Source: Alphaproteobacteria bacterium | Lineage (GTDB): Bacteria > Pseudomonadota > Alphaproteobacteria > Rs-D84 | Length of the DNA stretch: 59,154 nucleotides | NCBI GenBank assembly: GCA_017650945.1 | Contig: JAGCDW010000015.1 | Span: 1-59,154, forward strand | Direction of reading: 5' to 3' | Part shown: positions 5,302 to 57,006 of the stretch, in pieces | How the letters are laid out: each line of letters starts with the position of its first letter | How positions within the stretch are numbered: position 1 is the first letter of the stretch | The notes under the pieces: model-generated | Told to the model about the DNA's origin: nothing | Database searches by the model: none | Seen by the model: the letters and a program-made list of their open reading frames with translations, nothing else | Translations under genes and position numbers: made by a program

Positions 5302-6633
5302 TTATTCCTTTAACCAATCGCGCAAAGCATCACCAACCAACGGCGCATCATCGGGGACATCTGCGGGGTTCACAATAGAAACTATTCGTGGCGACATAAA
5401 CACAACCAATTCTGCGAACGGACTTATCAGTGTTTCCGGCGTTGTTACAAAAGAATGTGTCGGAATTCCAACAATCACATAGTTATCCCCAACACTGGAC
5501 GGAATTGTAAATGAAGAAAGTTCGCCATTACTTGTCCGCAAAACGATTTTCGCATCGATTTTATCTTTGCCGCCAAAATCGCCATACTTTGCAGTTGCGC
5601 CAACAATCAAATCCGTTTCCAACCTTTCTTCCTTGCCACACTGTCCAATATCGAATCGCGATTGCCAACCATCAGGTACGACAAAGTGTCCCTGGGATAT
5701 CAAAACCACATTTGCCTGTTGCGATAAAAATTCTTGCAGTGTTTTAGTATTCACCTCTGGTCCAACAACCAGCGCGCGCCCAACGACACCAGGTATCGAC
5801 ATTTTAATATTCTTTTCACCAAACGCCGGCAACATGTTCATCCAAACGATTGGATTATCAGTTCGCGGATAAACACGATACACATCCATATCCCACGCCA
5901 TAACATATTTTTTTGACGCAATATCAGAAATAATCCGCGCCACTTCGCGTTCCGTTTGATAATTACCTTCAAATATCACCGTATTATCAGCCCAATCAAC
6001 AATCACATTTCGCACATCGGCACCATGCATAGCATCTAAAATAGCCATCACAATATCTTCATCTTTTGGCATTTTAATAAGCCACTTTCCGCGATTAAAC
6101 AGTTTCAGTTCACCAAGTTTCGCATCATACGAATAATATGACCGCCCAAGATGAGTAATCAAATCCACCGCATCCGCAAGATTTCCACCAACAATCGACC
6201 CAGATATCCGTTCATAAATTTTTTCTTGCTCTATGACAGCAATGTCGGTTCCAGCCAACAATTTATCCAAAGTATCTCGCACGCCCTGCTTTCTGAAATC
6301 ATAATTAGACACCGTCAAATCTGGCAACGGGTCGCCAACATTTAAACGCACAATTTCAATCTTTTCATCCGGCACCACAGAAACAACAGATTGCGAATCC
6401 CAATTCACCGTACACCGCCGCGGTAATTCAACGGAAAACCGACGTGCTGTATCAGTGGTAAGGGCCGCTTTTTTTGGAAAAATAGGCACAGAATTATCAT
6501 CTATGACCAAATTATCGATAACTTGAACAGTGTTGTATTCAACCTCTTCTATATCATATGGGTCAGTTACCTGCATACAACCAGCCAACATGATTCCAAC
6601 ACACATTAAAATAAAATATTTCAATTTTTTCAT
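5302..6633 (-). CDS. lipoprotein with secretin-like C-terminal region (possible R64 PilN-type secretin)
   Basis: Lipobox MCVGIMLAGC. The C-terminus ..GDNYVIVGIPTHSF..PFAELVVFMSPRIVS resembles the conserved secretin end (EL-hydrophobic-x-hydrophobic-TP-x-I-V). Its stop lies 5 nt upstream of the lolC start. Confidence 0.45.
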   Translation of the reverse strand: MKKLKYFILMCVGIMLAGCMQVTDPYDIEEVEYNTVQVIDNLVIDDNSVPIFPKKAALTTDTARRFSVELPRRCTVNWDSQSVVSVVPDEKIEIVRLNVGDPLPDLTVSNYDFRKQGVRDTLDKLLAGTDIAVIEQEKIYERISGSIVGGNLADAVDLITHLGRSYYSYDAKLGELKLFNRGKWLIKMPKDEDIVMAILDAMHGADVRNVIVDWADNTVIFEGNYQTEREVARIISDIASKKYVMAWDMDVYRVYPRTDNPIVWMNMLPAFGEKNIKMSIPGVVGRALVVGPEVNTKTLQEFLSQQANVVLISQGHFVVPDGWQSRFDIGQCGKEERLETDLIVGATAKYGDFGGKDKIDAKIVLRTSNGELSSFTIPSSVGDNYVIVGIPTHSFVTTPETLISPFAELVVFMSPRIVSIVNPADVPDDAPLVGDALRDWLKE

Positions 6634-16958: not shown

Positions 16959-16987
16959 CTCACACTAACACTTACACTAATCACTAA
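16959..16987 (-). repeat. GTTAGTGTAAGTG-family dispersed repeat, copy c
   Basis: Minus strand reads TTAGTGATTAGTGTAAGTGTTAGTGTGAG. It contains the aspS TAG stop (16984..16986). Confidence 0.7.
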
Positions 16988-18738
16988 TTCTTCTTTCTCA
17001 CCTGAATATGCACTTCACGCAGTTGCTGTTCGGTCACTTCGCGCGGCGCACCCAACATCAAATCTTGGCCGCGTTGGTTCGTCGGGAACAGCACGACTTC
17101 ACGCAAATTGTTCGTTCCCAAAATAATCGAAACCAGTCGGTCAATACCGAACGCACAACCACCATGTGGTGGCGCACCATATTGAAACGCGGCATACATA
17201 CCACCGAACTTTTCTTTCACGACCTCTGGCCCATAGCCCGCAATCGCAAAGGCCCGTACCATCGTTTCGGGGTTATAGTTGCGCAATCCCCCACTGCAAA
17301 TTTCGGCACCATTCAGAACCATATCGAACTGATTCGCCTTTATTTTCAATGGGTCGCCGTCCAGTTCGCCCTTTGGCAAACTAAACGGATTATGGCCAAA
17401 GTCAATCGCACCTGTTTCTTCGTTCAATTCATACATTGGGAAATCTTCTATCCAACAGAATTTGAATTCATGCGGATTTATCAATCCCAAATCTTCGCCA
17501 AGTTTGATACGCAACTTGCCCGCCGCCTTGGCCGCATTTTCCGCCGTATCACACACAAAGAACAGCGATGAATTATCACCGGCGATTTCGTGCAATTTTT
17601 CGATTCGTTCCGCATCAAGTTTCTTCGCAACCGGCCCCTTGGCTTCATCCGCAAATACGATATAACCCAATCCACCAAGACCAAGTTCTTTGACCGCGTA
17701 TTCGCCAAGTTTATCGAACCAAGACCGCGGTTTGTCGGCACTGTTCGGCGCAGGAATCGCACGCACCACACTGCCGTTTTCAATCGCGTTCGCAAAGATT
17801 CCAAAATCTGACCCGCGGAAAATTTCCGTTACATCTGAAATAATAATCGGGTTGCGCAAATCGGGTTTATCCGAACCATATTTTAACATCGCCTCGTCAA
17901 ACGGGATATGCGGAATGTTTGGGTCAATAATCGCATCCGGCACAAAAGTTTTAATAAGTTCTGGCATAACCTCGTTCCCGACCGCCTGAATATCGCGCAG
18001 GTCCACAAACGACATTTCCAAATCTAATTGATAAAATTCAAGCAATCTGTCTGCGCGCAAATCTTCATCACGGAAACAAGGCGCAATCTGGAAATAGCGG
18101 TCAAACCCTGCAATCTGAATCAATTGCTTAAATTGCTGTGGCGCCTGGGGCAACGCATAGAACATACCATGATGATTACGACTTGGCACGATATAGTCGC
18201 GCGCGCCTTCGGGACTGGACACCGTCAGAATCGGCGTTTGGAATTCTGAAAACCCCAAATCCCACATTTTATCGCGCAAGAATTTCATAATACGATTGCG
18301 CGTCAAAATATTATTGTGCAAACTGTCGCGCCGCAAATCGATATAGCGATACTTTAACCGCAGATCTTCGGACACCGTATCATCATCGCCAAACACTTGG
18401 AATGGCAACACATCCGCGTTAGTCAAAACTTTCCAAGATTCCACACTTATTTCAATTTCACCGGTTGGAATTTTTTCATTTATTTGCGATTCATCACGCG
18501 CAACGACTTTACCCGTCACCTGTAAAACCGATTCCGGCCGCACACGTTCCAAATCGTCATTTCCGCCATCAAGGACAATTTGCGTAATTCCATAATTATC
18601 GCGCAGGTCGATAAACAGCAACGACCCATGGTCGCGTTTCCGATGAACCCAACCCGACAGCGTAACGGTTTCACCAACATTTTTCGCGGACAATTCCCCG
18701 CAAGTATGTGTTCTGTATTTTGATTTAAGTGATAACAT
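16984..18738 (-). CDS. aspS: aspartate--tRNA ligase
   Basis: OB-fold N-terminus (TLSGWVHRKRDHGSLLFIDLRD), class II motifs FYALPQAPQQFKQL, FRDEDLRADR and GGCAFGIDR. Confidence 0.95.
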   Translation of the reverse strand: MLSLKSKYRTHTCGELSAKNVGETVTLSGWVHRKRDHGSLLFIDLRDNYGITQIVLDGGNDDLERVRPESVLQVTGKVVARDESQINEKIPTGEIEISVESWKVLTNADVLPFQVFGDDDTVSEDLRLKYRYIDLRRDSLHNNILTRNRIMKFLRDKMWDLGFSEFQTPILTVSSPEGARDYIVPSRNHHGMFYALPQAPQQFKQLIQIAGFDRYFQIAPCFRDEDLRADRLLEFYQLDLEMSFVDLRDIQAVGNEVMPELIKTFVPDAIIDPNIPHIPFDEAMLKYGSDKPDLRNPIIISDVTEIFRGSDFGIFANAIENGSVVRAIPAPNSADKPRSWFDKLGEYAVKELGLGGLGYIVFADEAKGPVAKKLDAERIEKLHEIAGDNSSLFFVCDTAENAAKAAGKLRIKLGEDLGLINPHEFKFCWIEDFPMYELNEETGAIDFGHNPFSLPKGELDGDPLKIKANQFDMVLNGAEICSGGLRNYNPETMVRAFAIAGYGPEVVKEKFGGMYAAFQYGAPPHGGCAFGIDRLVSIILGTNNLREVVLFPTNQRGQDLMLGAPREVTEQQLREVHIQVRKKN

Positions 18739-19072
18739 TTCTGTTCCTTTTTGGTTTATCCCCCGAAGCCATTATCCACCACCAACCTAACGCCGATGGA
18801 TTGGCGAAGGGGGATGGGCGACAAAAAACAGATTGAATTTTGGCACCCATTGGTTAAACAAATTTTTCTTTCGGGGCGCATATTTGGCTATGCGCGGTGC
18901 CACCCGAATTTATCACTTTTTTGTTTTTGAATCTGGCTCCGTGGTTGTTGGTCACATCACCGCCAAACGCAAAACTTTCCTGTATTTTATATTGAAAATC
19001 TCATTTTTGCAAGTTTTTAACAAATCTCTGTTATCGCATAACTAAAACACGACGCAACGATTTCCAGAGCAC

Positions 19073-19209: not shown

Positions 19210-19357
19210 CATCTCTGGAATAAGTTGTCATCGAATTTAGTAACTTCTACAACAAGATAACGGTATTTTGGAATTTTAAGCGTCCTATTTTGAAAGTGCA
19301 TTAACACCTATTCTTTTTTTCTTTTCAATGACCGAACATTTATGCTAAAATTCGACT

Positions 19358-19540
19358 GATGGTGGATGTTCCGTCATCGGGGTGTCAAGACCTCTTTTAG
19401 ACAGTGTCGGCGTAACCTGCGCCGACAGAAAACTCCAACCTTTATCGGTTGGAGGGTTGTGAATATATTGAATAAACACACAATTTCTGTCTAAATTGTC
19501 TTGAACCTCCAACCACCTAAGAAAGAAAAAGGTGGTTTTT
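19358..19540 (+). promoter_or_regulatory. structured 5' leader RNA, copy A (candidate riboswitch/attenuator)
   Basis: A -10-like TAAAAT (19346..19351) precedes three hairpins: 19358..19378, 19405..19427 and 19433..19454. The element AACCTCCAACC (19504..19514) can pair with the 3' arm of hairpin 3. The terminator is AACCACC-N13-GGTGGTT plus a T-run (19511..19540). The second copy is at 56615..56791(-). Confidence 0.65.
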
Positions 19541-19562
19541 AAAATTGTAAAAAGGAGGTTTT

Positions 19563-21077
19563 ATGTTTAAAAAAATATTTTTTGCGTTACTTGCGACATT
19601 GACGATAAAGATTGCCGTTGCCGACACGTGCCTTAGCAATCAAATGACATTGCCGGACGGTTCGTGCGTTGATGCAAAATTTTCCGTAACAACCACCAGT
19701 GATATGCCGGATAACACAACATTTAAATTTTACCTTTCGGCCCAAGGAACATTTTACATTGATTGGGGCGAAGGCAACAATACACCCGCCGAAATTATAC
19801 CGCACGATAACACAACCGAAACACTTTATTCACACACATACACAACCGGTGGCGAAAAAATAATTCGATTCGGTGGCGTCGCAACAAAGTATAAAAGCGG
19901 TTATAATAACACCATACGTTTCGGATACACTAGCACCGCGGATGATTCCACACCCCAATTTATTTCGGCAATCAATGGTTCATTGGGCGAAATGTTTCCA
20001 ACATTAGACACCACGTACAATAATATACCGGGTTTTTCCCATGCATTTGCACGCACCAAAATAGCAACGGTTCCCGAAACATTATTTTCCGGAATTCATG
20101 ACTCAACCCCATATATGTTTCAAGCCACATTTTCCTATTCAAGCATCTCTACAATTCCCGCAAACCTTTTTCGTGATATAACCGAACCAGCCCAGGGACT
20201 TTTTAACTCAACATTTATAGCAACAACATCATTACACACAATTCCATCAACATTATTCCACAATGTTCATGGTTCCGCAAACAACATGTTCCAAAATACA
20301 TTTAGGCAATCTGGTTTAACATCAATTCCCCCTGAATTATTCCAAACAATTACCGGTTCAGCAACTAACCTTTTTGATGCAACATTTTTGGGCTGTCGAA
20401 TAACATCAATTCCTGACAACCTTTTTCCCGGTATCACAAATGTGGGAACAAGGCAATTTGGTAACACTTTTTCTAGCAATTCATTGTTAACCGGATATAT
20501 TCCGCCATCACTTTTTTCCGGATTAAACAACAGTGGTTTAGACACAACAAACCTTATGCAAAATATATTCGCCAGTTGCCCTAACCTTGCCACCACATGC
20601 CCACCTGGGACGGTTCAATTTATAACCGGATACGAAGACTATTGGGGTGGCCATGTATCATGCGTTGAAGAAGATATGGTTTGCAATGCTGGACAATATT
20701 TACCGGCACATGGATACGAATGCACAACATGCCCACGCAATAACTATTGTCCTGGTGGCACATATCAATACAGCGAAAATCAAACATCCGGCCTTACGCA
20801 ATGCCCGAACTCTTTACAGTCCCCAATCGGAATGTCATCGGCCAATCAATGCGGACGCGTTTTACACCTTGGCGATGATGTCGTTTACCTGCACAGCACA
20901 AAAAAGACCCAACACGCATTACACATCGACATGGACGGCGACGGCACAGCGGACTTTTTCGGCAACATGACAACAACCGAAACACCGATGTCTTATGGCA
21001 CAACCAGGAAATTAAAAATATGGCTTAACAACACAACATATTTCGTCTATGACGACAGCGCTGAATTAAACGAATAA
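19563..21077 (+). CDS. secreted protein with LRR-like ~24-aa repeats and a Cys-rich ephrin-receptor/TNFR-like module
   Basis: SD is AAGGAGG. Signal peptide MFKKIFFALLATLTIKIAVA. Repeats follow the pattern ..F..TF....L.SIP..LF..I.G... The C-terminal module is CNAGQYLPAHGYECTTCPRNNYCPGGTY..C. Confidence 0.7.
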   Translation: MFKKIFFALLATLTIKIAVADTCLSNQMTLPDGSCVDAKFSVTTTSDMPDNTTFKFYLSAQGTFYIDWGEGNNTPAEIIPHDNTTETLYSHTYTTGGEKIIRFGGVATKYKSGYNNTIRFGYTSTADDSTPQFISAINGSLGEMFPTLDTTYNNIPGFSHAFARTKIATVPETLFSGIHDSTPYMFQATFSYSSISTIPANLFRDITEPAQGLFNSTFIATTSLHTIPSTLFHNVHGSANNMFQNTFRQSGLTSIPPELFQTITGSATNLFDATFLGCRITSIPDNLFPGITNVGTRQFGNTFSSNSLLTGYIPPSLFSGLNNSGLDTTNLMQNIFASCPNLATTCPPGTVQFITGYEDYWGGHVSCVEEDMVCNAGQYLPAHGYECTTCPRNNYCPGGTYQYSENQTSGLTQCPNSLQSPIGMSSANQCGRVLHLGDDVVYLHSTKKTQHALHIDMDGDGTADFFGNMTTTETPMSYGTTRKLKIWLNNTTYFVYDDSAELNE

Positions 21078-52229: not shown

Positions 52230-52532
52230 ATGAAGCAACAAGTGCTAAAAGCTTTGGCGAATCCGTCGCATTTATTCTATGTGCCATATACTTTGGCGGT
52301 GTTGAATTTTATGATTCAGTTCATTATTTTTATCATTTTATATACAATCGGTATGTTTATTTTCCCGGATAAAGTAAATGATTATTTAAATCCGCTATTT
52401 TTTATAATATCTGTGTGTATTGTCCATATGATTTTAGCCCATTATTCGCGGCGCGACCCGCAACTTGGACAAATTTTGATTGCTAAAATCAGAATGATAA
52501 GAAATAAAATTCCACGGAGACTTGCGGCATGA
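52230..52532 (+). CDS. virB3: type IV secretion protein VirB3
   Basis: 100 aa with two TM helices. Its N-terminus ..LKALANPSHLFYVPY.. resembles the VirB3 L.rP....GVP motif. Overlaps virB4 (ATGA). Confidence 0.65.
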   Translation: MKQQVLKALANPSHLFYVPYTLAVLNFMIQFIIFIILYTIGMFIFPDKVNDYLNPLFFIISVCIVHMILAHYSRRDPQLGQILIAKIRMIRNKIPRRLAA

Positions 52533-54946
52533 TACCTGAATTTTTCAAATATTTTGCCGGTAATGGGTTTTCTAATACTATAACACTAACTGTTATGGCA
52601 ATCGCGGTTATATTTGTGTTTTTAGTATTATTGATGTATATTCCAACTATTGTAAAACATGTTTTTCCAAAGTTTGGTTATAAACATTACTCTGAATATA
52701 TACCTTTTACAACTGTTTATACCGATAATTCAATTGAACTAAGTGATGGTTGTTTAATTCGTGTTTATTCAATCGCTGGTGTGCAAACCAGTATGCAAAC
52801 AGACGAGCAACGTGAAAAATTTCTTGACCTGCGTGCGCAGTTATTCAACCAAATCCACGACCCAAATATTGTGCTGCGATTTTTTACAACGCGTGACGCG
52901 GTTGCAGAAAATACGGACTATGAATTCGACCAACCTGTATTACAGAAAATTTACGACAAATGGCATTCCCAAGGGTTAAAGATATTTTTAAATAATTATT
53001 ATATTGTACTTTCTGTTCGTGGTGCGCATGCGCGTGATAAACTAAATCAGTATGGAAATTATATTGAATCGATACTTGCGCCATATAAACCAAAAATGCT
53101 TGAAAACAAATCTCGGGATAATATGGCAAAGTTTTTTGGTCGTATCTTATCACCGATTACAAAGCCAACGCCGGCGGTGTGTGATGATAAAATCACTGAA
53201 AACGCAACAGTTGATGATGTGGAATTTTTATCAAACGGAACAGTTAAATATATAAGTGGTAATTATGAATACTATGCGGCACTTTTATCTTTCCGTGCAG
53301 CACCAGATTATTTGGACGAAGATTTTTTTGATTCTGTGAATACGATTCAAACTGAAATGATTTGTATGAACGGATTCAAAATAATGAATTCCGCAGATGT
53401 AGAGGCGGTAATGCGCCAACGCCGCAGTGTTGCAAACAAAGAAAATGATTCAACCGAAGAACAAATATCAAGTGCGGAATCGGTCATGGATGAAAATGTT
53501 TCCGGAAACCAAACTCTTGTAAATTATTATCCGCTGTTTATGATATTTGCGAAAAGCGAAGCGGAATTAAAAGAACATGTTGATGAATTCAAAAAGATTT
53601 CTGCATCATTTGGCGTATCGCCAATCCAAGAAAGTTTCGCGACCAAGGTTTCATGGTTTTCAATAATACCTGGGTTTGATACATTCCCGCGGACTTTCAA
53701 AATGTTGTCGCGTGCGGCGGCAATCAGTGTTCCAATGTCGTCCGCACCACGCGGTATATCAAATTCTGATTGGGGTCCGGGGCCACTTGTTATATTCCCA
53801 ACGGCACAAGGCACACCGTATCAGTTTCAATTTCATGTGTCGGATAAACCGGCGGCGGTTGGACATACACTTACAATCGGTCCGACCGGTGGTGGTAAAA
53901 CAACATTGTTCTCGTTCCTTATTGCACAGTCAATGCGACATCAGAAATTAAAGGCATTTTTCTTTGATCGGAATAAAGGCGCAGAAATCTTTACACTTGC
54001 GACCGGTGGAAAATATATAACGATGCAAGGCAAAGAAAAAAATGAAACAAATTTCCTTGCACATCTGAACCCACTAAAAATGTCGGATACTGCGGCAAAC
54101 CGTGGATTTTTGCGGCGGTGGTTGGCGATGATTTCCGAACAATCTGACCCACTTTCCGAAGATGAAATTGCGCGCGCGGTTTCGGTGAATTTTGATTACT
54201 TGGTTGATAAAGACAGAATGTTGAAAAATTTATGGGAAAGTTGTTTTTCATCGTCCGGCAAAATGCGCGCCGCATTAAAGAAATGGGTTGACCCATTACA
54301 ATACGGCGACATATTTAATGAAGAAACGGATACGCTCGATTTGCAATCTCGTTTGACCACTTTTGATTTTACCGAAATTTTACAAGACCCCGTCCTTGCG
54401 CCCGCGGTGATATCATATATATTGCATAGGATAAATAACACAACTGTATCCGGCGGAAATCCTTCACTTATTATGATTGACGAAACAGCGCCTATGCTGG
54501 AAAATAAAATGTTTAGGGATAATTTTATCGCCGGTCTCCAAGAAGGACGCAAAAATCGCCAGGCATATATGGTCGCATTTCAACGCGCAAATGTTTTGGA
54601 TAAACTTGGAATTGGCGATGTTGTCCGTGGCCAGGCGCAAACGATTATGTTCTTCCGCAATCCGGCGGCGGATGCGGCGGACTATGAACATTGGAATTTG
54701 AATCCACTGGAAATGGCGTTCATCCAAGGCAAGGCCTACCCTAACCTAAAACGTGCGGTTTTATTGTCGCGCCCGGTCAATAATGAATCAGTGATTTTGA
54801 ATACTGAACTTGGGGGACTCGGCAGTTTACTAAAATTATTCGAATCAGGTCGTTCATCGGTTTTACTCGCCGAGGAACTTTATCGCCAATACGGTTCGGC
54901 GTTTGTTGCGGAATATTTAAAAAAACAAGGTGCAGGCGATATATAA
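52529..54946 (+). CDS. virB4: type IV secretion ATPase VirB4
   Basis: 805 aa. Walker A GPTGGGKTT, Walker B LIMIDETAPML, and a typical ..FFRNP.. C-terminal region. Confidence 0.9.
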   Translation: MIPEFFKYFAGNGFSNTITLTVMAIAVIFVFLVLLMYIPTIVKHVFPKFGYKHYSEYIPFTTVYTDNSIELSDGCLIRVYSIAGVQTSMQTDEQREKFLDLRAQLFNQIHDPNIVLRFFTTRDAVAENTDYEFDQPVLQKIYDKWHSQGLKIFLNNYYIVLSVRGAHARDKLNQYGNYIESILAPYKPKMLENKSRDNMAKFFGRILSPITKPTPAVCDDKITENATVDDVEFLSNGTVKYISGNYEYYAALLSFRAAPDYLDEDFFDSVNTIQTEMICMNGFKIMNSADVEAVMRQRRSVANKENDSTEEQISSAESVMDENVSGNQTLVNYYPLFMIFAKSEAELKEHVDEFKKISASFGVSPIQESFATKVSWFSIIPGFDTFPRTFKMLSRAAAISVPMSSAPRGISNSDWGPGPLVIFPTAQGTPYQFQFHVSDKPAAVGHTLTIGPTGGGKTTLFSFLIAQSMRHQKLKAFFFDRNKGAEIFTLATGGKYITMQGKEKNETNFLAHLNPLKMSDTAANRGFLRRWLAMISEQSDPLSEDEIARAVSVNFDYLVDKDRMLKNLWESCFSSSGKMRAALKKWVDPLQYGDIFNEETDTLDLQSRLTTFDFTEILQDPVLAPAVISYILHRINNTTVSGGNPSLIMIDETAPMLENKMFRDNFIAGLQEGRKNRQAYMVAFQRANVLDKLGIGDVVRGQAQTIMFFRNPAADAADYEHWNLNPLEMAFIQGKAYPNLKRAVLLSRPVNNESVILNTELGGLGSLLKLFESGRSSVLLAEELYRQYGSAFVAEYLKKQGAGDI

Positions 54947-54947
54947 T

Positions 54948-55580
54948 ATGTTAAAAAAAATTTTATTTTTTATTCTATTGCCTTTTGCAGTGTTCGCTGA
55001 TGATTGTGTGCAGTATAAAAAAACACCTTTTGTAAATATTAAAAATCCAGAATGGACGAAAACTGTTGAATTGTCCGATGACCCAATGGATGAATACAAT
55101 GGAAAATATTTTTCTTTCAAATTGCATGGAACAACCGAAACAAGTTTTATGGAAAAATATAATATCGATTTTAATGTTATTCCCGAACGCGATGGATACT
55201 GTGTGATTGTAAATGGTGTTGATGCAACCGTTGGTTATGAAAATTTTTTGGTTAAAATTGATAAATCGCATAAAAAAAATTCTTGTTCATATAACGCTGT
55301 TTTGAAACACGAAGAAAAACATATAGATGCATATTTATCGATATTAAATGATATGGAACCCGATATAAAAAACTCAGTTTTTAACGCGATGAATTCGATA
55401 ATGCCAATATACGCGCCCGACATAGAAAGCATAGATTTATTACTTGAAGACATGTATAAAAAACTTGAAAATCATCCTGAACTTGTTTTGCTTCATCAAA
55501 AAATAAATGCGGCCCAAGAAATTCGTAACAAACATATCGACCAAGACGAAAATAATTACGAATTAAAGCAATGTGAATAA
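54948..55580 (+). CDS. secreted protein with HExxH motif (possible DUF922-like zincin)
   Basis: Signal peptide MLKKILFFILLPFAVFA. HEEKH lies at ..AVLKHEEKHIDAY... Confidence 0.45.
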   Translation: MLKKILFFILLPFAVFADDCVQYKKTPFVNIKNPEWTKTVELSDDPMDEYNGKYFSFKLHGTTETSFMEKYNIDFNVIPERDGYCVIVNGVDATVGYENFLVKIDKSHKKNSCSYNAVLKHEEKHIDAYLSILNDMEPDIKNSVFNAMNSIMPIYAPDIESIDLLLEDMYKKLENHPELVLLHQKINAAQEIRNKHIDQDENNYELKQCE

Positions 55581-55589
55581 ATTGTAAAA

Positions 55590-55615
55590 AAAAATCGCCC
55601 TTTGGCGATTTTTTA
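55590..55615. terminator. bidirectional intrinsic terminator
   Basis: AAAAAATCGCC-CTTT-GGCGATTTTTT lies between convergent genes. Confidence 0.7.
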
Positions 55616-55629
55616 TTTAATAGTTATTC

Positions 55630-56583
55630 CTAAGAACATATATGGTTTGCTGTGTTACAGGTTTGACCACTACTGGGGCAATCCGATTCTATGCTGCATC
55701 CGCACTCAGCGGTGCCGCTTTGAAAAACACCACTACAGCAAACCGATGCAGAAGGGGGCTTGCCTGCCACAACCACTCCATACGCCCCACAACTCGGTGC
55801 GGGGGCTTGTGGTTCTTCCAAACTATACAACCAACAATAATTATCATCGTTCGCATGTCCATCAACATACCCCGCACAGGTAAGTTTTTCTTGTTTCGTT
55901 TCCACAAATCCCGCGGTCGCAAGTTTACCCGAATCGGTTGATGAATTGTATGTTGTGGAACCATTATACACACCAACCGAACCAACCGAACCCGCGGTGC
56001 CGGTATATGTAACAACATTACCCGATGTTCCCGCGGCAATAATGTTTTGTTTTAACGCAAGTCCCTGTGCCAATGATGAACCGGTTATGTATCTATCGTA
56101 ATCGCCGGACGGCCACATTCCTTTATTACCGAAATCCGTATCATATGCATTAACAGCACTGGTCTCTGTTGATGTCCAGGAAAGTGTGTTGTTAAGGCTG
56201 GTCCATATGCTACTTAATTCATTTGCCACGACACGAACCGTTGGAACAACGTTATCATAAGTTGCGGCGGTATAATGGGACAGATTAGGATTGGGCATGT
56301 TACTCACTGTCCCGTGATCCACGACACCAACCGTATTACCATTCAATGCGGTGCCGGCAGAATTAGTTAAAACCAATGCTGGAACATATGCAGTAATTCC
56401 TTCTTTTGGGTTTTCATAAAACAACACCTTGTCTGTGGTGATTTTATCTTGTTTTGTGGTATCGACATAGTATTTGGATGTAACGGTTTTCTGGTCCAAT
56501 AGTTCCTGGGCCGTTGGGTCCGCAAACGCCGGCATTGCAACCACCGCCGCGATTATTGATGTTGTTATCAATGTTTTTCTCAT
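55630..56583 (-). CDS. secreted surface-type protein with Cys-rich C-terminus
   Basis: SD is AAGGAGG. Signal peptide MRKTLITTSIIAAVVAMPAFA. The body is Thr/Ser/Gly-rich and the C-terminus reads ..SCGAYG..SVCCSGVF..AECGCS..DCPSSGQTCNTANHICS. Confidence 0.65.
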   Translation of the reverse strand: MRKTLITTSIIAAVVAMPAFADPTAQELLDQKTVTSKYYVDTTKQDKITTDKVLFYENPKEGITAYVPALVLTNSAGTALNGNTVGVVDHGTVSNMPNPNLSHYTAATYDNVVPTVRVVANELSSIWTSLNNTLSWTSTETSAVNAYDTDFGNKGMWPSGDYDRYITGSSLAQGLALKQNIIAAGTSGNVVTYTGTAGSVGSVGVYNGSTTYNSSTDSGKLATAGFVETKQEKLTCAGYVDGHANDDNYCWLYSLEEPQAPAPSCGAYGVVVAGKPPSASVCCSGVFQSGTAECGCSIESDCPSSGQTCNTANHICS

Positions 56584-56614
56584 AAAAATCCTCCTTTCGT
56601 TTTTTTATAAACAC

Positions 56615-56791
56615 CAAAAAACCACCGAAATTCTTTCATGTGGTTGGAGGTTCAGAACTATAATGTGTTGAATAGTGGGCTTATTCTATATATTCACCGC
56701 CCTCCAACCACACCGGGCTGGAGGTGTTTTATGTCCCCACGGACAAACACATTCAAGGGTTCTGACACCCCATCGATGGAATTCCCATCGA
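56615..56791 (-). promoter_or_regulatory. structured 5' leader RNA, copy B (candidate riboswitch/attenuator)
   Basis: The sense strand aligns with 19358..19540. Shared blocks are GGGGTGTCA, GGTTGGAGGG..GTGAATATAT.GAATAA and GAACCTCCAACCAC. All three hairpins and the terminator (AACCAC..GTGGTT plus TTTTTT) are conserved with compensatory changes. Confidence 0.65.
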
Positions 56792-56834
56792 CACAGGTAT
56801 AATATCACAAAACCCAAATTGTTACAATAGAAAT

Positions 56835-56870: not shown

Positions 56871-57006
56871 CGTCATCCCGGCGAAGGCCGGGATCCAGTG
56901 TGAGCGGCAACGAACACCTGCGTCGCAGACAATTTTATTATCACTGCGGGACAGTCAACCTTCGCCAAGGCTTCGGTTGATGGATCCCGCGCTTCTGCGG
57001 GATGAC
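56871..57006 (+). mobile_element. hairpin-ended miniature repeat (MITE-like), copy 3
   Basis: Starts CGTCATCCCGGCGAAGGCCGGGATCCAGTG and ends GGATCCCGCGCTTCTGCGGGATGAC. These are terminal inverted repeats, and each is itself a hairpin. Confidence 0.75.

Follow-up and report, generated by a model that had tools for sequence, protein, structure and literature searches.

A previously undescribed structured mRNA leader family of a proposed terminator/antiterminator kind in Rs-D84 Alphaproteobacteria

The leader locus and its second copy

In the present study, we analysed contig JAGCDW010000015.1 at its full length of 59,154 nt (the window, in whose numbering the coordinates of both copies are given) and describe a structured mRNA leader that is found there twice, as copies A and B, each ahead of a gene for a secreted protein. 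Copy B lies at 56792..56616 on the minus strand. It is a full member of a structured RNA family and was top-scoring with the covariance model described below (146.2 bits, E 3e-35), which places it among the best-scoring members of a real and strongly supported family. Its folding is also better than that of its shuffles (z = -3.5). The first-pass annotation had placed a structured leader here, and we confirmed this placement on the minus strand. Two of its measures were corrected: the terminator loop is 14 nt and not 13, and the distance from the U-run to the Shine-Dalgarno (SD) sequence is about 19 nt and not about 30. The testable parts of its reading were otherwise borne out, and the open fold, the long-range helices P2 and P3 and the family-wide promoter are added here. 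The features of copy B are the following.

56827..56799, minus strand: sigma-70-type promoter from a consensus scan, with -35 TTGTAA (56827-56822), a 17-nt spacer and an extended -10 TGaTATTAT (56807-56799)
56792..56640, minus strand: structured core of the leader
56772..56792, minus strand: P1, 5'-terminal hairpin with arms GUCGAUGG / CCAUCGAU; the structure is kept and the sequence varies
56759..56771, minus strand: P2 5' strand GGGGUGUCAGAAC; outer GGGG pairs with CCUC of the 3' arm, inner UCAGAAC with GUUCUGA
56746..56753, minus strand: P3 5' strand AAUGUGUU, with its partner AACACAUU at 56669-56662
56732..56745, minus strand: P4, variable hairpin UGUCC GUGG GGACA, absent or much longer in some subfamilies
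56701..56724, minus strand: P5 hairpin, with 5' arm CCUCCAGCC (56724-56716), loop and central strand GGUUGGAGG (56709-56701)
56677..56702, minus strand: P6 hairpin, a short covarying stem around the invariant 17-nt loop GUGAAUAUAUAGAAUAA (56697-56681)
56658..56675, minus strand: P7 of the open fold, CUAU (56675-56672) with AUAG (56661-56658); the P3 3' strand (56669-56662) lies inside its loop
56640..56658, minus strand: P2 3' strand GUUCUGA (56658-56652), then the 3' arm CCUCCAACC (56650-56642); this arm is the switch strand, with the 5' GGGG as partner when closed and GGUUGGAGG when open
56616..56645, minus strand: intrinsic terminator that folds, AACCAC (56645-56640), 14-nt loop, GUGGUU and U6 ending at 56616
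55630..56596, minus strand: downstream gene, presumably regulated, with SD AAGGAGG (56596-56590), ATG at 56583 and a 317-aa product

Transcription of copy B would start at about 56793-56792, which is the base of P1. The left arm of its terminator shares AACC with the 3' arm.

The window contains exactly two occurrences of a 29-nt core, GGTTGGAGGGNNGTGAATATATNGAATAA (19447+ and 56681-), where 0.00 would be expected from shuffles. With its filters off, the family model likewise gave exactly two sites, copies A and B; the next match, at 16 bits, is the antisense of copy A, and no further leader copy was found in the window by this search. Copy A and its gene are as follows.

19350..19545, plus strand: copy A of the leader, 125.1 bits, E 6e-30 with the covariance model; fold z = -8.9 against shuffles
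19563-21077, plus strand: gene after copy A, encoding a 504-aa secreted, cysteine-rich protein that is leucine-rich-repeat (LRR)-like

Alignment of 19330..19570(+) with copy B shows the conserved blocks GGGGTGTCARRACC, CTCCARCC..GGTTGGAGGG-NN-GTGAATATATNGAATAA and TGAACCTCCAACCAC, and the stems between them differ by compensatory changes. The shared RNA architecture that had been noticed earlier is therefore upheld by both the alignment and the covariance model, and the similarity is confined, as had been claimed, to the promoter, the leader and the SD, the flanks being dissimilar. On the structural alignment the two copies are 59.5% identical. The nearest relatives of copy B (82-83% identity) are in other metagenome-assembled genomes (MAGs), and copy A ranks only 43rd of 115. 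Hence the copies are old paralogues and not the outcome of a recent duplication, which had been doubted before. The two downstream products are unrelated, as the earlier reading also had it (BLASTP E = 1.5). According to their translations, both carry an N-terminal signal peptide and are cysteine-rich towards the C-terminus. Neither product had a Pfam match, and a PDB sequence search with the copy B product found nothing; the latter is related to another leader-preceded protein, in locus L101 (E = 2e-9).

A side observation concerns the surroundings of copy A. Directly upstream of aspS (16984-18738, minus strand), at 18869-19021(-) of the window, the T-box leader RF00230 gives a sub-threshold match (29.5 bits, with the gathering score at 93; local E = 1e-4). 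The T-box sequence AAUUCGGGUGGCACCGCGCAU...UGCGCCCCG is kept there and most of stem I is missing. This match and copy A share one intergenic region and are divergently oriented.

One RNA family with two covarying folds

An exact-pattern scan with GGGNNGTGAATATATNGAATA over one genome per GTDB species matched at least 119 stretches and, among the matches listed, 115 of 125 pattern occurrences were true members by the pairing test. A covariance model (R1; 158 positions and 36 pairs) was built from 77 copies. It gave 116 matches in the window and loci L001-L099, two of which are the window copies (114 in the loci), and 29 more in L100-L127. By pattern scan and then covariance model there are at least about 140 further copies beyond the window, some of which do not fit the search pattern. 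One locus, L075:5263-6479, holds a second leader (6280-6479, minus strand) that lacks the P6 loop and still reaches E = 7e-10; its two leader-preceded genes are convergent and encode a 75-aa helix-turn-helix (HTH) protein and a 213-aa cysteine-rich secreted protein.

The pairing was evaluated in a model-guided alignment of 115 distinct rows (A3). In the closed fold, 91.8% of cells are in standard pairs, against 33-49% when the partners were slid by 1-3 columns. Both sides have changed in 32 of the 36 pairs, with 806 doubly changed cells against 226±16 in shuffles. The compensatory changes that had been read between the two copies are thus real and extend to about 115 members of the family. The transcribed strand is fixed by the abundant G·U pairs together with an antisense score of just 16 bits.

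In the closed fold P1 comes first; P2 and P3 then stack on each other and end in a four-way junction, from which P4, P5 and P6 branch off. P1 shows two-sided changes across the family in 8/8 pairs, with 94.9% of cells paired; the helices P1, P2, P4 and P5 (CUCCAACC/GGUUGGAG) are each 95-96% paired (P5 96%, P4 95%), and all four modelled pairs of P4 covary. P2 is a long-range helix of GGGG-YG-UNNNNAC with GUNNNNA-A-CCUC, for which more than 35 different complementary 7-mer pairs were found; compensatory change is strong among its inner pairs, one of which reads CG47/AU43/GC14/UA6. P3 is another long-range helix, in which the segment after the P2 5' strand pairs with the segment before the P2 3' strand, and its length is too variable for alignment. 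Its duplexes were therefore compared by energy: the median was -8.2 kcal/mol when both strands came from one copy and -1.7 when they were taken from different copies (Mann-Whitney p = 2e-48). The stem of P6 is short, varies in register by subfamily and encloses the 17-nt loop GYGAAUAUAUNGAAUAA. This loop is 95-100% conserved at all but two positions in the 115 distinct copies, including those found by the model and not by the pattern. The P6 pairs are 69% paired in the model alignment, an under-count since the register differs between subfamilies. In addition, columns 44 and 281 of A3 (U 56767 and A 56676 in copy B), which are the Y of 5' GGGGYG and the R just 3' of P6, covary as UA52/CG39 between invariant flanking G/C. 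This covariation implies a helix of 3-4 bp crossing P2, and the candidates for it are a tertiary pseudoknot of the closed fold or a part of the open fold.

The second fold, here called open, rests on the central strand GGUUGGAGG, which covaries both with its 5' arm and with the 3' arm CCUCCAACC, these two partners being near-identical copies. Where the central strand varies, as GUCAGGAGG, GGCAGGAGG, GGCUGGAGG or GAUUGGAGG, its 5' and 3' partners both change accordingly. The open-fold pairs are 94.7% paired, against 36-52% when slid, and those lying outside the model still covary (217:319, UA90/AU22; 283:303, UA80/AU28). The latter pair belongs to P7, which is CUAU/AUAG in copy B with the variants CAAU/AUUG and CUGU/ACAG elsewhere; column 283 follows column 303 and not its nominal P6 partner G223 (GU82, unpaired 31). 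The open fold is a three-way junction formed by the junction helix, P6 and P7, and its 3' strand includes the AACC of the terminator left arm. In copy B the junction helix extends to 11 bp (56711-56701 with 56650-40) in the minimum-free-energy (MFE) fold of the 3' half. P3 and P7 would exclude each other on steric grounds, because the P3 3' strand lies within the P7 loop and almost no linker remains.

Natural variants of the leader occur in tandem arrays of units, every unit with a promoter of its own. These arrays are listed below.

L040:5587-6159, minus strand: unit array
L050:2963-3856, minus strand: unit array
L045:6176-6533, minus strand: unit array
L021:2803-3140, minus strand: unit array
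L046:182-514, plus strand: unit array

In locus L040, a gene for a 78-aa HTH protein is preceded by three complete tandem units, all of which have a TATAAT and most a terminator of their own. In L045, L021, L046 and L050 there are units that lack everything from P1 to the P5 5' arm; their own promoter precedes the central strand by about 20 nt, and they can form the three-way junction only. What every unit has, the open-only ones included, is therefore the three-way junction carrying the P6 loop, with which the added 5' domain competes.

The overlap with termination was quantified across the family. A U-run follows within 60 nt downstream in 91 of the 93 copies with enough sequence, with a median hairpin of -9.7 kcal/mol, and in 79 of 103 terminators four pairs use nucleotides of the 3' arm. 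When the 5' domain was deleted in silico, the median equilibrium probability of the basal terminator pairs decreased from 0.93 to 0.20. In copy B it fell from 0.92 to 0.0002, the 11-bp junction helix covering the whole left arm. By nearest-neighbour energies, in which pseudoknotted pairs are not counted, the closed fold with the terminator is favoured by a median of 10.9 kcal/mol, and by 10.0 when the terminator is left out. As the closed fold is computed to be far more stable, termination would be the default, and the open fold would need some help for the gene to be read.

Promoters, downstream genes and hosts

A promoter stands at a fixed place throughout the family, with TTG at -35..-33 and TAtAAT at -12..-7 relative to the base of P1 (112 distinct copies). 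Elements of an extended -10 occur in about half of them (G at -14 in 56% and T at -15 in 51%; strict TG placement in 30/112). This fixed distance implies that the RNA starts at P1. At the other end, a same-strand SD and open reading frame (ORF) follow the leader in 99/115 copies, and the ORF start lies at a median of 50 nt past the 3' arm (interquartile range 45-59).

The products are diverse. Among 90 distinct ones, 54 have signal-peptide-like N-termini and 37 contain at least 4% cysteine, and about two dozen are small (52-82 aa) and without a signal peptide. Pfam searches on 68 products found an XRE-type HTH in a handful of small proteins (7 HTH_31, 5 HTH_19 and 4 HTH_3, overlapping). Other matches were Ephrin-receptor-like and TNFR-like cysteine-rich repeats, Listeria-Bacteroides repeats, outer-membrane-protein (OMP) beta-barrel, YadA anchor, HsdM, ABC exporter and UvrD-like helicase. 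The first-pass annotation had suggested a regulon on the basis of two genes. This idea is strengthened, since the leader precedes dozens of different genes across the lineage and about 60% of the products are signal-peptide-like. The leader probably controls expression of the gene downstream, and all leaders may sense a single signal.

Nearly all members are in MAGs labelled 'Candidatus Enterousia'/Rs-D84 or uncultured Alphaproteobacteria, from rumen, gut and faeces. A few come from bins with the label Muribaculaceae or Prevotella, where the contigs concerned were probably mis-binned. One MAG (JAIDWS) has at least 10 copies on the tiles examined, and genomes of this lineage are below 1 Mb. Enterousia belongs to the order Rs-D84, is uncultured, and has genomes mostly below 1 Mb that lack the TCA (tricarboxylic acid) cycle and a respiratory chain (PMC12306168). 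Family members also occur on five IMG/VR contigs classed as viral (L121, L123, L124, L125 and L126); in L124 the leader precedes a gene for a 316-aa secreted protein that adjoins those for a DNA methyltransferase and a PLD-like protein. This may reflect a prophage or a mis-called cellular contig.

The window itself is chromosomal. Copy B has dnaG as its immediate upstream neighbour, in the same orientation, and gyrB, aspS, ychF and a gene for an HD-domain protein are also present. A perfect GC-rich hairpin, AUCCCGGCCUUCGCCGGGAU (56875-56894, minus strand), lies in the stretch from the end of dnaG (57032) to the copy B promoter, with no U-run after it and with weak Rfam matches at chance level only. 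Genes for VirB3-like and VirB4-like type IV secretion proteins, followed by a 216-aa ORF without a Pfam match, occupy 52230-55580(+) and converge on the copy B gene. In the short gap that separates this convergent ORF (54930-55580, plus strand) from the copy B gene, whose 3' end is at 55630, a weak STnc370-like match was seen at 55551-55621(+) (36.7 bits, gathering score 54, E = 0.2), which is probably a shared terminator hairpin.

The search for a partner in the window gave no result: Pfam found no RNA-binding regulator among the neighbouring window genes, and beyond the two leaders there was no trans partner for the P6 loop and no extra GGUUGGAGG site. A tblastn search with E. coli RfaH, NusG, Hfq and CsrA against about 1 Mb of locus DNA gave no match either, a sample so sparse as to be uninformative.

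The leader family is without prior description in Rfam 15 or in the literature searched. At the gathering score, the only Rfam 15 matches in the window are three tRNAs, and no riboswitch or leader class gave a relevant match at E<=10 on either leader or at E<=5 over the whole window. Neither the P6 loop sequence nor work joining RF32 with a riboswitch was found in the literature searched, and papers that name Enterousia deal with taxonomy and metabolism. The motif is absent from the first 200 of the 408 supplement files of a catalogue of structured RNAs of the human microbiome (PMC8040213). Overall, this is a previously undescribed family of structured mRNA leaders of about 180 nt, probably of the terminator/antiterminator kind.

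Proposed attenuation, rival explanations and significance

We consider, with a probability of about 0.7, that copy B acts in cis, as a 5' leader with the function of a bistable terminator/antiterminator transcription attenuator of riboswitch-like kind. What is observed comprises the structure, two covarying folds that exclude each other, an overlap with the terminator, a promoter at a fixed place and the setting among genes. According to the proposed mechanism, the leader would be transcribed from its own promoter. In the closed fold the 5' partner would hold the central strand GGUUGGAGG, leaving the AACCAC/GUGGUU-U6 terminator free to form, and transcription would stop before the gene. In the open fold the central strand would pair with the 3' arm CCUCCAACC, which holds the terminator left arm, and the junction with P6 and P7 would close. 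The P3 3' strand would then be trapped in the P7 loop, no terminator would form, and RNA polymerase would read into the gene. The closed fold would thus mean termination and the open fold read-through, with OFF as the modelled default, and some effector would shift the balance to the open fold. It may be recognised through the three-way junction and the invariant 17-nt P6 loop, and candidates for it are a small molecule (e.g. a second messenger), a protein or an RNA. We lean slightly, at little better than even odds, to an ON switch, with an effector that would stabilise the open junction and a 5' domain that would serve as autoinhibitory anti-antiterminator, because the junction module is kept in all units and the closed fold needs no help.

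Leaders of protein- or tRNA-dependent antitermination (LicT/SacY ribonucleic antiterminator (RAT), ANTAR, T-box and LoaP) resemble this model, as they have a default-on terminator and an alternative over its left arm that is stabilised by a factor. By analogy, the leader hairpin with the invariant loop could be a recognition site. Features of RAT, of the ANTAR dual hexaloop and of the T-box were not found in the leader, where the P6 loop is 17 nt and the P7 loop about 7-15 nt, and there was no RAT-like Rfam match.

Several observations weigh against the attenuator reading. In 93-96% of copies the closed fold is favoured over the open one by about 10 kcal/mol, and the invading 3' arm is almost without a toehold on the P5 hairpin, which forms first. 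The in silico effect on the terminator is only partial in copy A (0.93 to 0.51). In the MFE fold of the L045 open-only unit, the terminator is kept beside a shortened junction helix, so open-only units may also need a stabilising factor. The covariation of columns 44 and 281 fits neither fold cleanly, the gene set is heterogeneous and gives no pointer to a ligand, and the tandem units of L040, with their own promoter and terminator, also fit free-standing small RNA (sRNA) genes.

The main alternative, which we regard as possible, if unlikely, is an OFF riboswitch for a small molecule. The closed four-way-junction fold would be the aptamer and the P5 5' arm an anti-antiterminator, as in designs of the SAM-I type; bound ligand would fix the RNA in the closed fold and let the terminator form, and the ligand-free RNA would take the open fold. 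Generic features of riboswitches are indeed present, namely a covarying structured domain in the 5' untranslated region and a terminator that competes with an alternative helix. Like riboswitches of the SAM-I/FMN type and the c-di-GMP-I class, the leader has a structured 5' region, exclusive helices that share a terminator strand, and conserved junction and loop nucleotides. An aptamer would suit the conserved multi-stem junction domain of about 160 nt, with conserved nucleotides in its junction and loop and a possible tertiary pair between columns 44 and 281, and the three tiers of anti-antiterminator, antiterminator and terminator are all there. The c-di-GMP-I (GEMM-I) riboswitches have many copies per genome and occasional tandems, and stand before surface, adhesion and regulator genes; the leader, too, is multi-copy, sometimes tandem, and placed before diverse surface and regulator genes, as second-messenger riboswitches are. 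Against this, even in the absence of ligand the closed fold has an advantage of about 10 kcal/mol, the 5' domain is poorly conserved in sequence apart from its pairing partners, units without the 5' domain retain the P6 loop, and no gene function suggests a metabolite. The leader also differs from these riboswitches in having its own promoter for each unit, two near-identical partners for the central strand and a far more stable closed fold, and it matches no Rfam riboswitch in sequence or structure (gathering score or E<=10).

The trans-acting sRNA, the DNA operator and the mobile repeat are each less likely. For the first of these, the closest known RNA has to be considered. sRNA-Xcc1 (RF02221) was the only Rfam family with recurrent sub-threshold matches, which fall on the 3' half of the leader at 25.3 (copy B), 32.9 and 36.4 bits. 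The leaders do not reach its gathering score (53), and it had no match at E<=10 on copy A, nor any on the leader in 10 of 12 other loci. The cmscan alignment matches every helix of the leader open fold, the pairs of which covary. Both are three-way junctions of about 87 nt in total, with a 9-bp G-rich/C-rich closing helix that holds GGAG/CUCC, two internal hairpins, the first with an A/U-rich loop, and a J strand (UUUGAG compared with UCUGAA). The conserved sequence of hairpin 1 is different (AUACAAUACCCGnAAGGGGAA, compared with GYGAAUAUAUNGAAUAA in the leader). Unlike the leader, sRNA-Xcc1 is without the 5' domain (P1 to the P5 5' arm) and without a separate terminator hairpin. First cloned from Xanthomonas campestris as an 88-nt RNA, and found in that genus within an integron cassette, ahead of symE, sRNA-Xcc1 is known from the literature as a trans-acting sRNA. 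Bona fide members at 69-70 bits were found on a Nitratidesulfovibrio plasmid (L128) and in a 2.17-Mb Neisseria gonorrhoeae record in a plasmid collection (L129), and the one in L128 precedes an SD and ORF by about 45 nt, with a U-rich stretch directly after the closing helix. The leader is possibly a distant relative of sRNA-Xcc1, and belongs neither to RF02221 nor to another Rfam family.

In the same lineage, an sRNA-Xcc1-like three-way junction was seen at L113:2517-2607 on the plus strand (42.7 bits against the gathering score of 53). Its 5' arm, central strand and 3' arm make up a separate triple (UUCCUGACC / GGUCGGGAAG / CUUCCCGGCC), a terminator and a secreted-protein gene are present, and the hairpin-1 loop is different. 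This element is a divergent cousin of the leader and suggests a wider superfamily of such leaders.

We find it improbable that the units are mainly free-standing genes for trans-acting sRNAs, the anti-SD-like CCUCC of which would act on other mRNAs while their place upstream of genes is secondary. The models for this would be sRNA-Xcc1 or the alphaproteobacterial CCUCCUCCC 'cuckoo'/CcsR sRNAs. The latter are multi-copy, with some in tandem arrays, and carry their motif in the hairpin loops of short two-hairpin RNAs; the leader shares the alphaproteobacterial host, the multiple copies, the tandems and the C-rich anti-SD-like motifs. An own promoter and terminator for each unit, tandem arrays with a promoter in every unit, the presence of CCUCC motifs and the likeness of the 3' half to an RNA detected at 88 nt all speak for such genes. 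The position and orientation are fixed, however, with a same-strand SD and ORF in 99/115 copies at tight spacing. The CCUCC segments are base-paired in both folds, and an antiterminator helix that covaries with the terminator left arm would be purposeless in a pure sRNA. Bona fide sRNA-Xcc1 itself lies about 45 nt upstream of an ORF (in L128, the one member inspected) and upstream of symE in Xanthomonas integron cassettes. In contrast to the 'cuckoo'/CcsR sRNAs, the leader has its CCUCC always paired, is about 180 nt long, is fixed upstream of ORFs and has no Rfam match to those families.

It is very improbable that the invariant 17-bp block acts as DNA, be it as an operator for small XRE-type HTH proteins or as a pause or promoter-like element, with the surrounding RNA structure as an incidental or secondary feature. 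The block does hold a palindrome, AATATATT, and two TGAATA direct repeats, and about a quarter of the copies precede small HTH genes. Yet it always lies in the loop of a hairpin with a covarying stem, about 100 nt past the inferred transcription start, its distance to any -10-like partner varies with the length of P3, and its flanking symmetry is a direct and not an inverted repeat. A repeat or mobile element of the miniature inverted-repeat transposable element (MITE) kind, or a recent duplication, that only seems structured is scarcely credible: for all its copies, at least 10 of them in one MAG of a lineage below 1 Mb and some on the five IMG/VR contigs, the similarity stops at the promoter and the SD, copies A and B are just 59.5% identical with their nearest relatives in other species (copies in general 60-83%), the stems differ by compensatory changes, and the aligned flanks show no terminal inverted repeats, target-site duplications not having been searched for.

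Three further candidates were rejected. A leader-peptide attenuator is excluded since no short ORF is conserved; the sole SD-like/GUG pair (GGAGG-N3-GUG) reads GUG AAU AUA UAG (stop) in copy B, and the codon at the UAG position varies as UUG/UCG/UAG across the family. A likeness to the RfaH ops element (GGCGGTG compared with GGCGGTAG) fails because the 'CG' positions vary and covary with their RNA partner. An internal promoter TTGAAT...TATAGT in P6/P7 was dismissed as well, for its spacing changes with the length of P3.

As for the meaning of the attenuator reading, both conformers are independently supported by covariation, which makes the leader a clean natural example for the study of RNA switching. 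As a presumed orphan sensor, it allows its ligand or factor to be sought with the 85-nt three-way junction. It also suggests a testable reinterpretation of sRNA-Xcc1. The leader stands before genes for secreted cysteine-rich, LRR and adhesin-like proteins, for small HTH regulators and for restriction and helicase functions. It is conceivable, if rather doubtful, that it represents a riboregulator of a new class and serves the reduced-genome Rs-D84/Enterousia gut symbionts as master gate of their variable surface proteome and their accessory genes, with a conserved junction and invariant loop that sense one signal of a host or partner, and that it is anciently related to sRNA-Xcc1. If this were true, the signal could be a small molecule, a second messenger or a dedicated factor, and the integron-borne sRNA-Xcc1 would have to be seen anew, as the sensor module in a family of cis-acting leaders that extends through the Proteobacteria. 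With so many copies in one MAG of such small genomes, the leader would be among the main regulatory devices there. Its regulon can be listed by computer, which would give a handle on the surface proteins that are co-expressed during contact with a host or partner.

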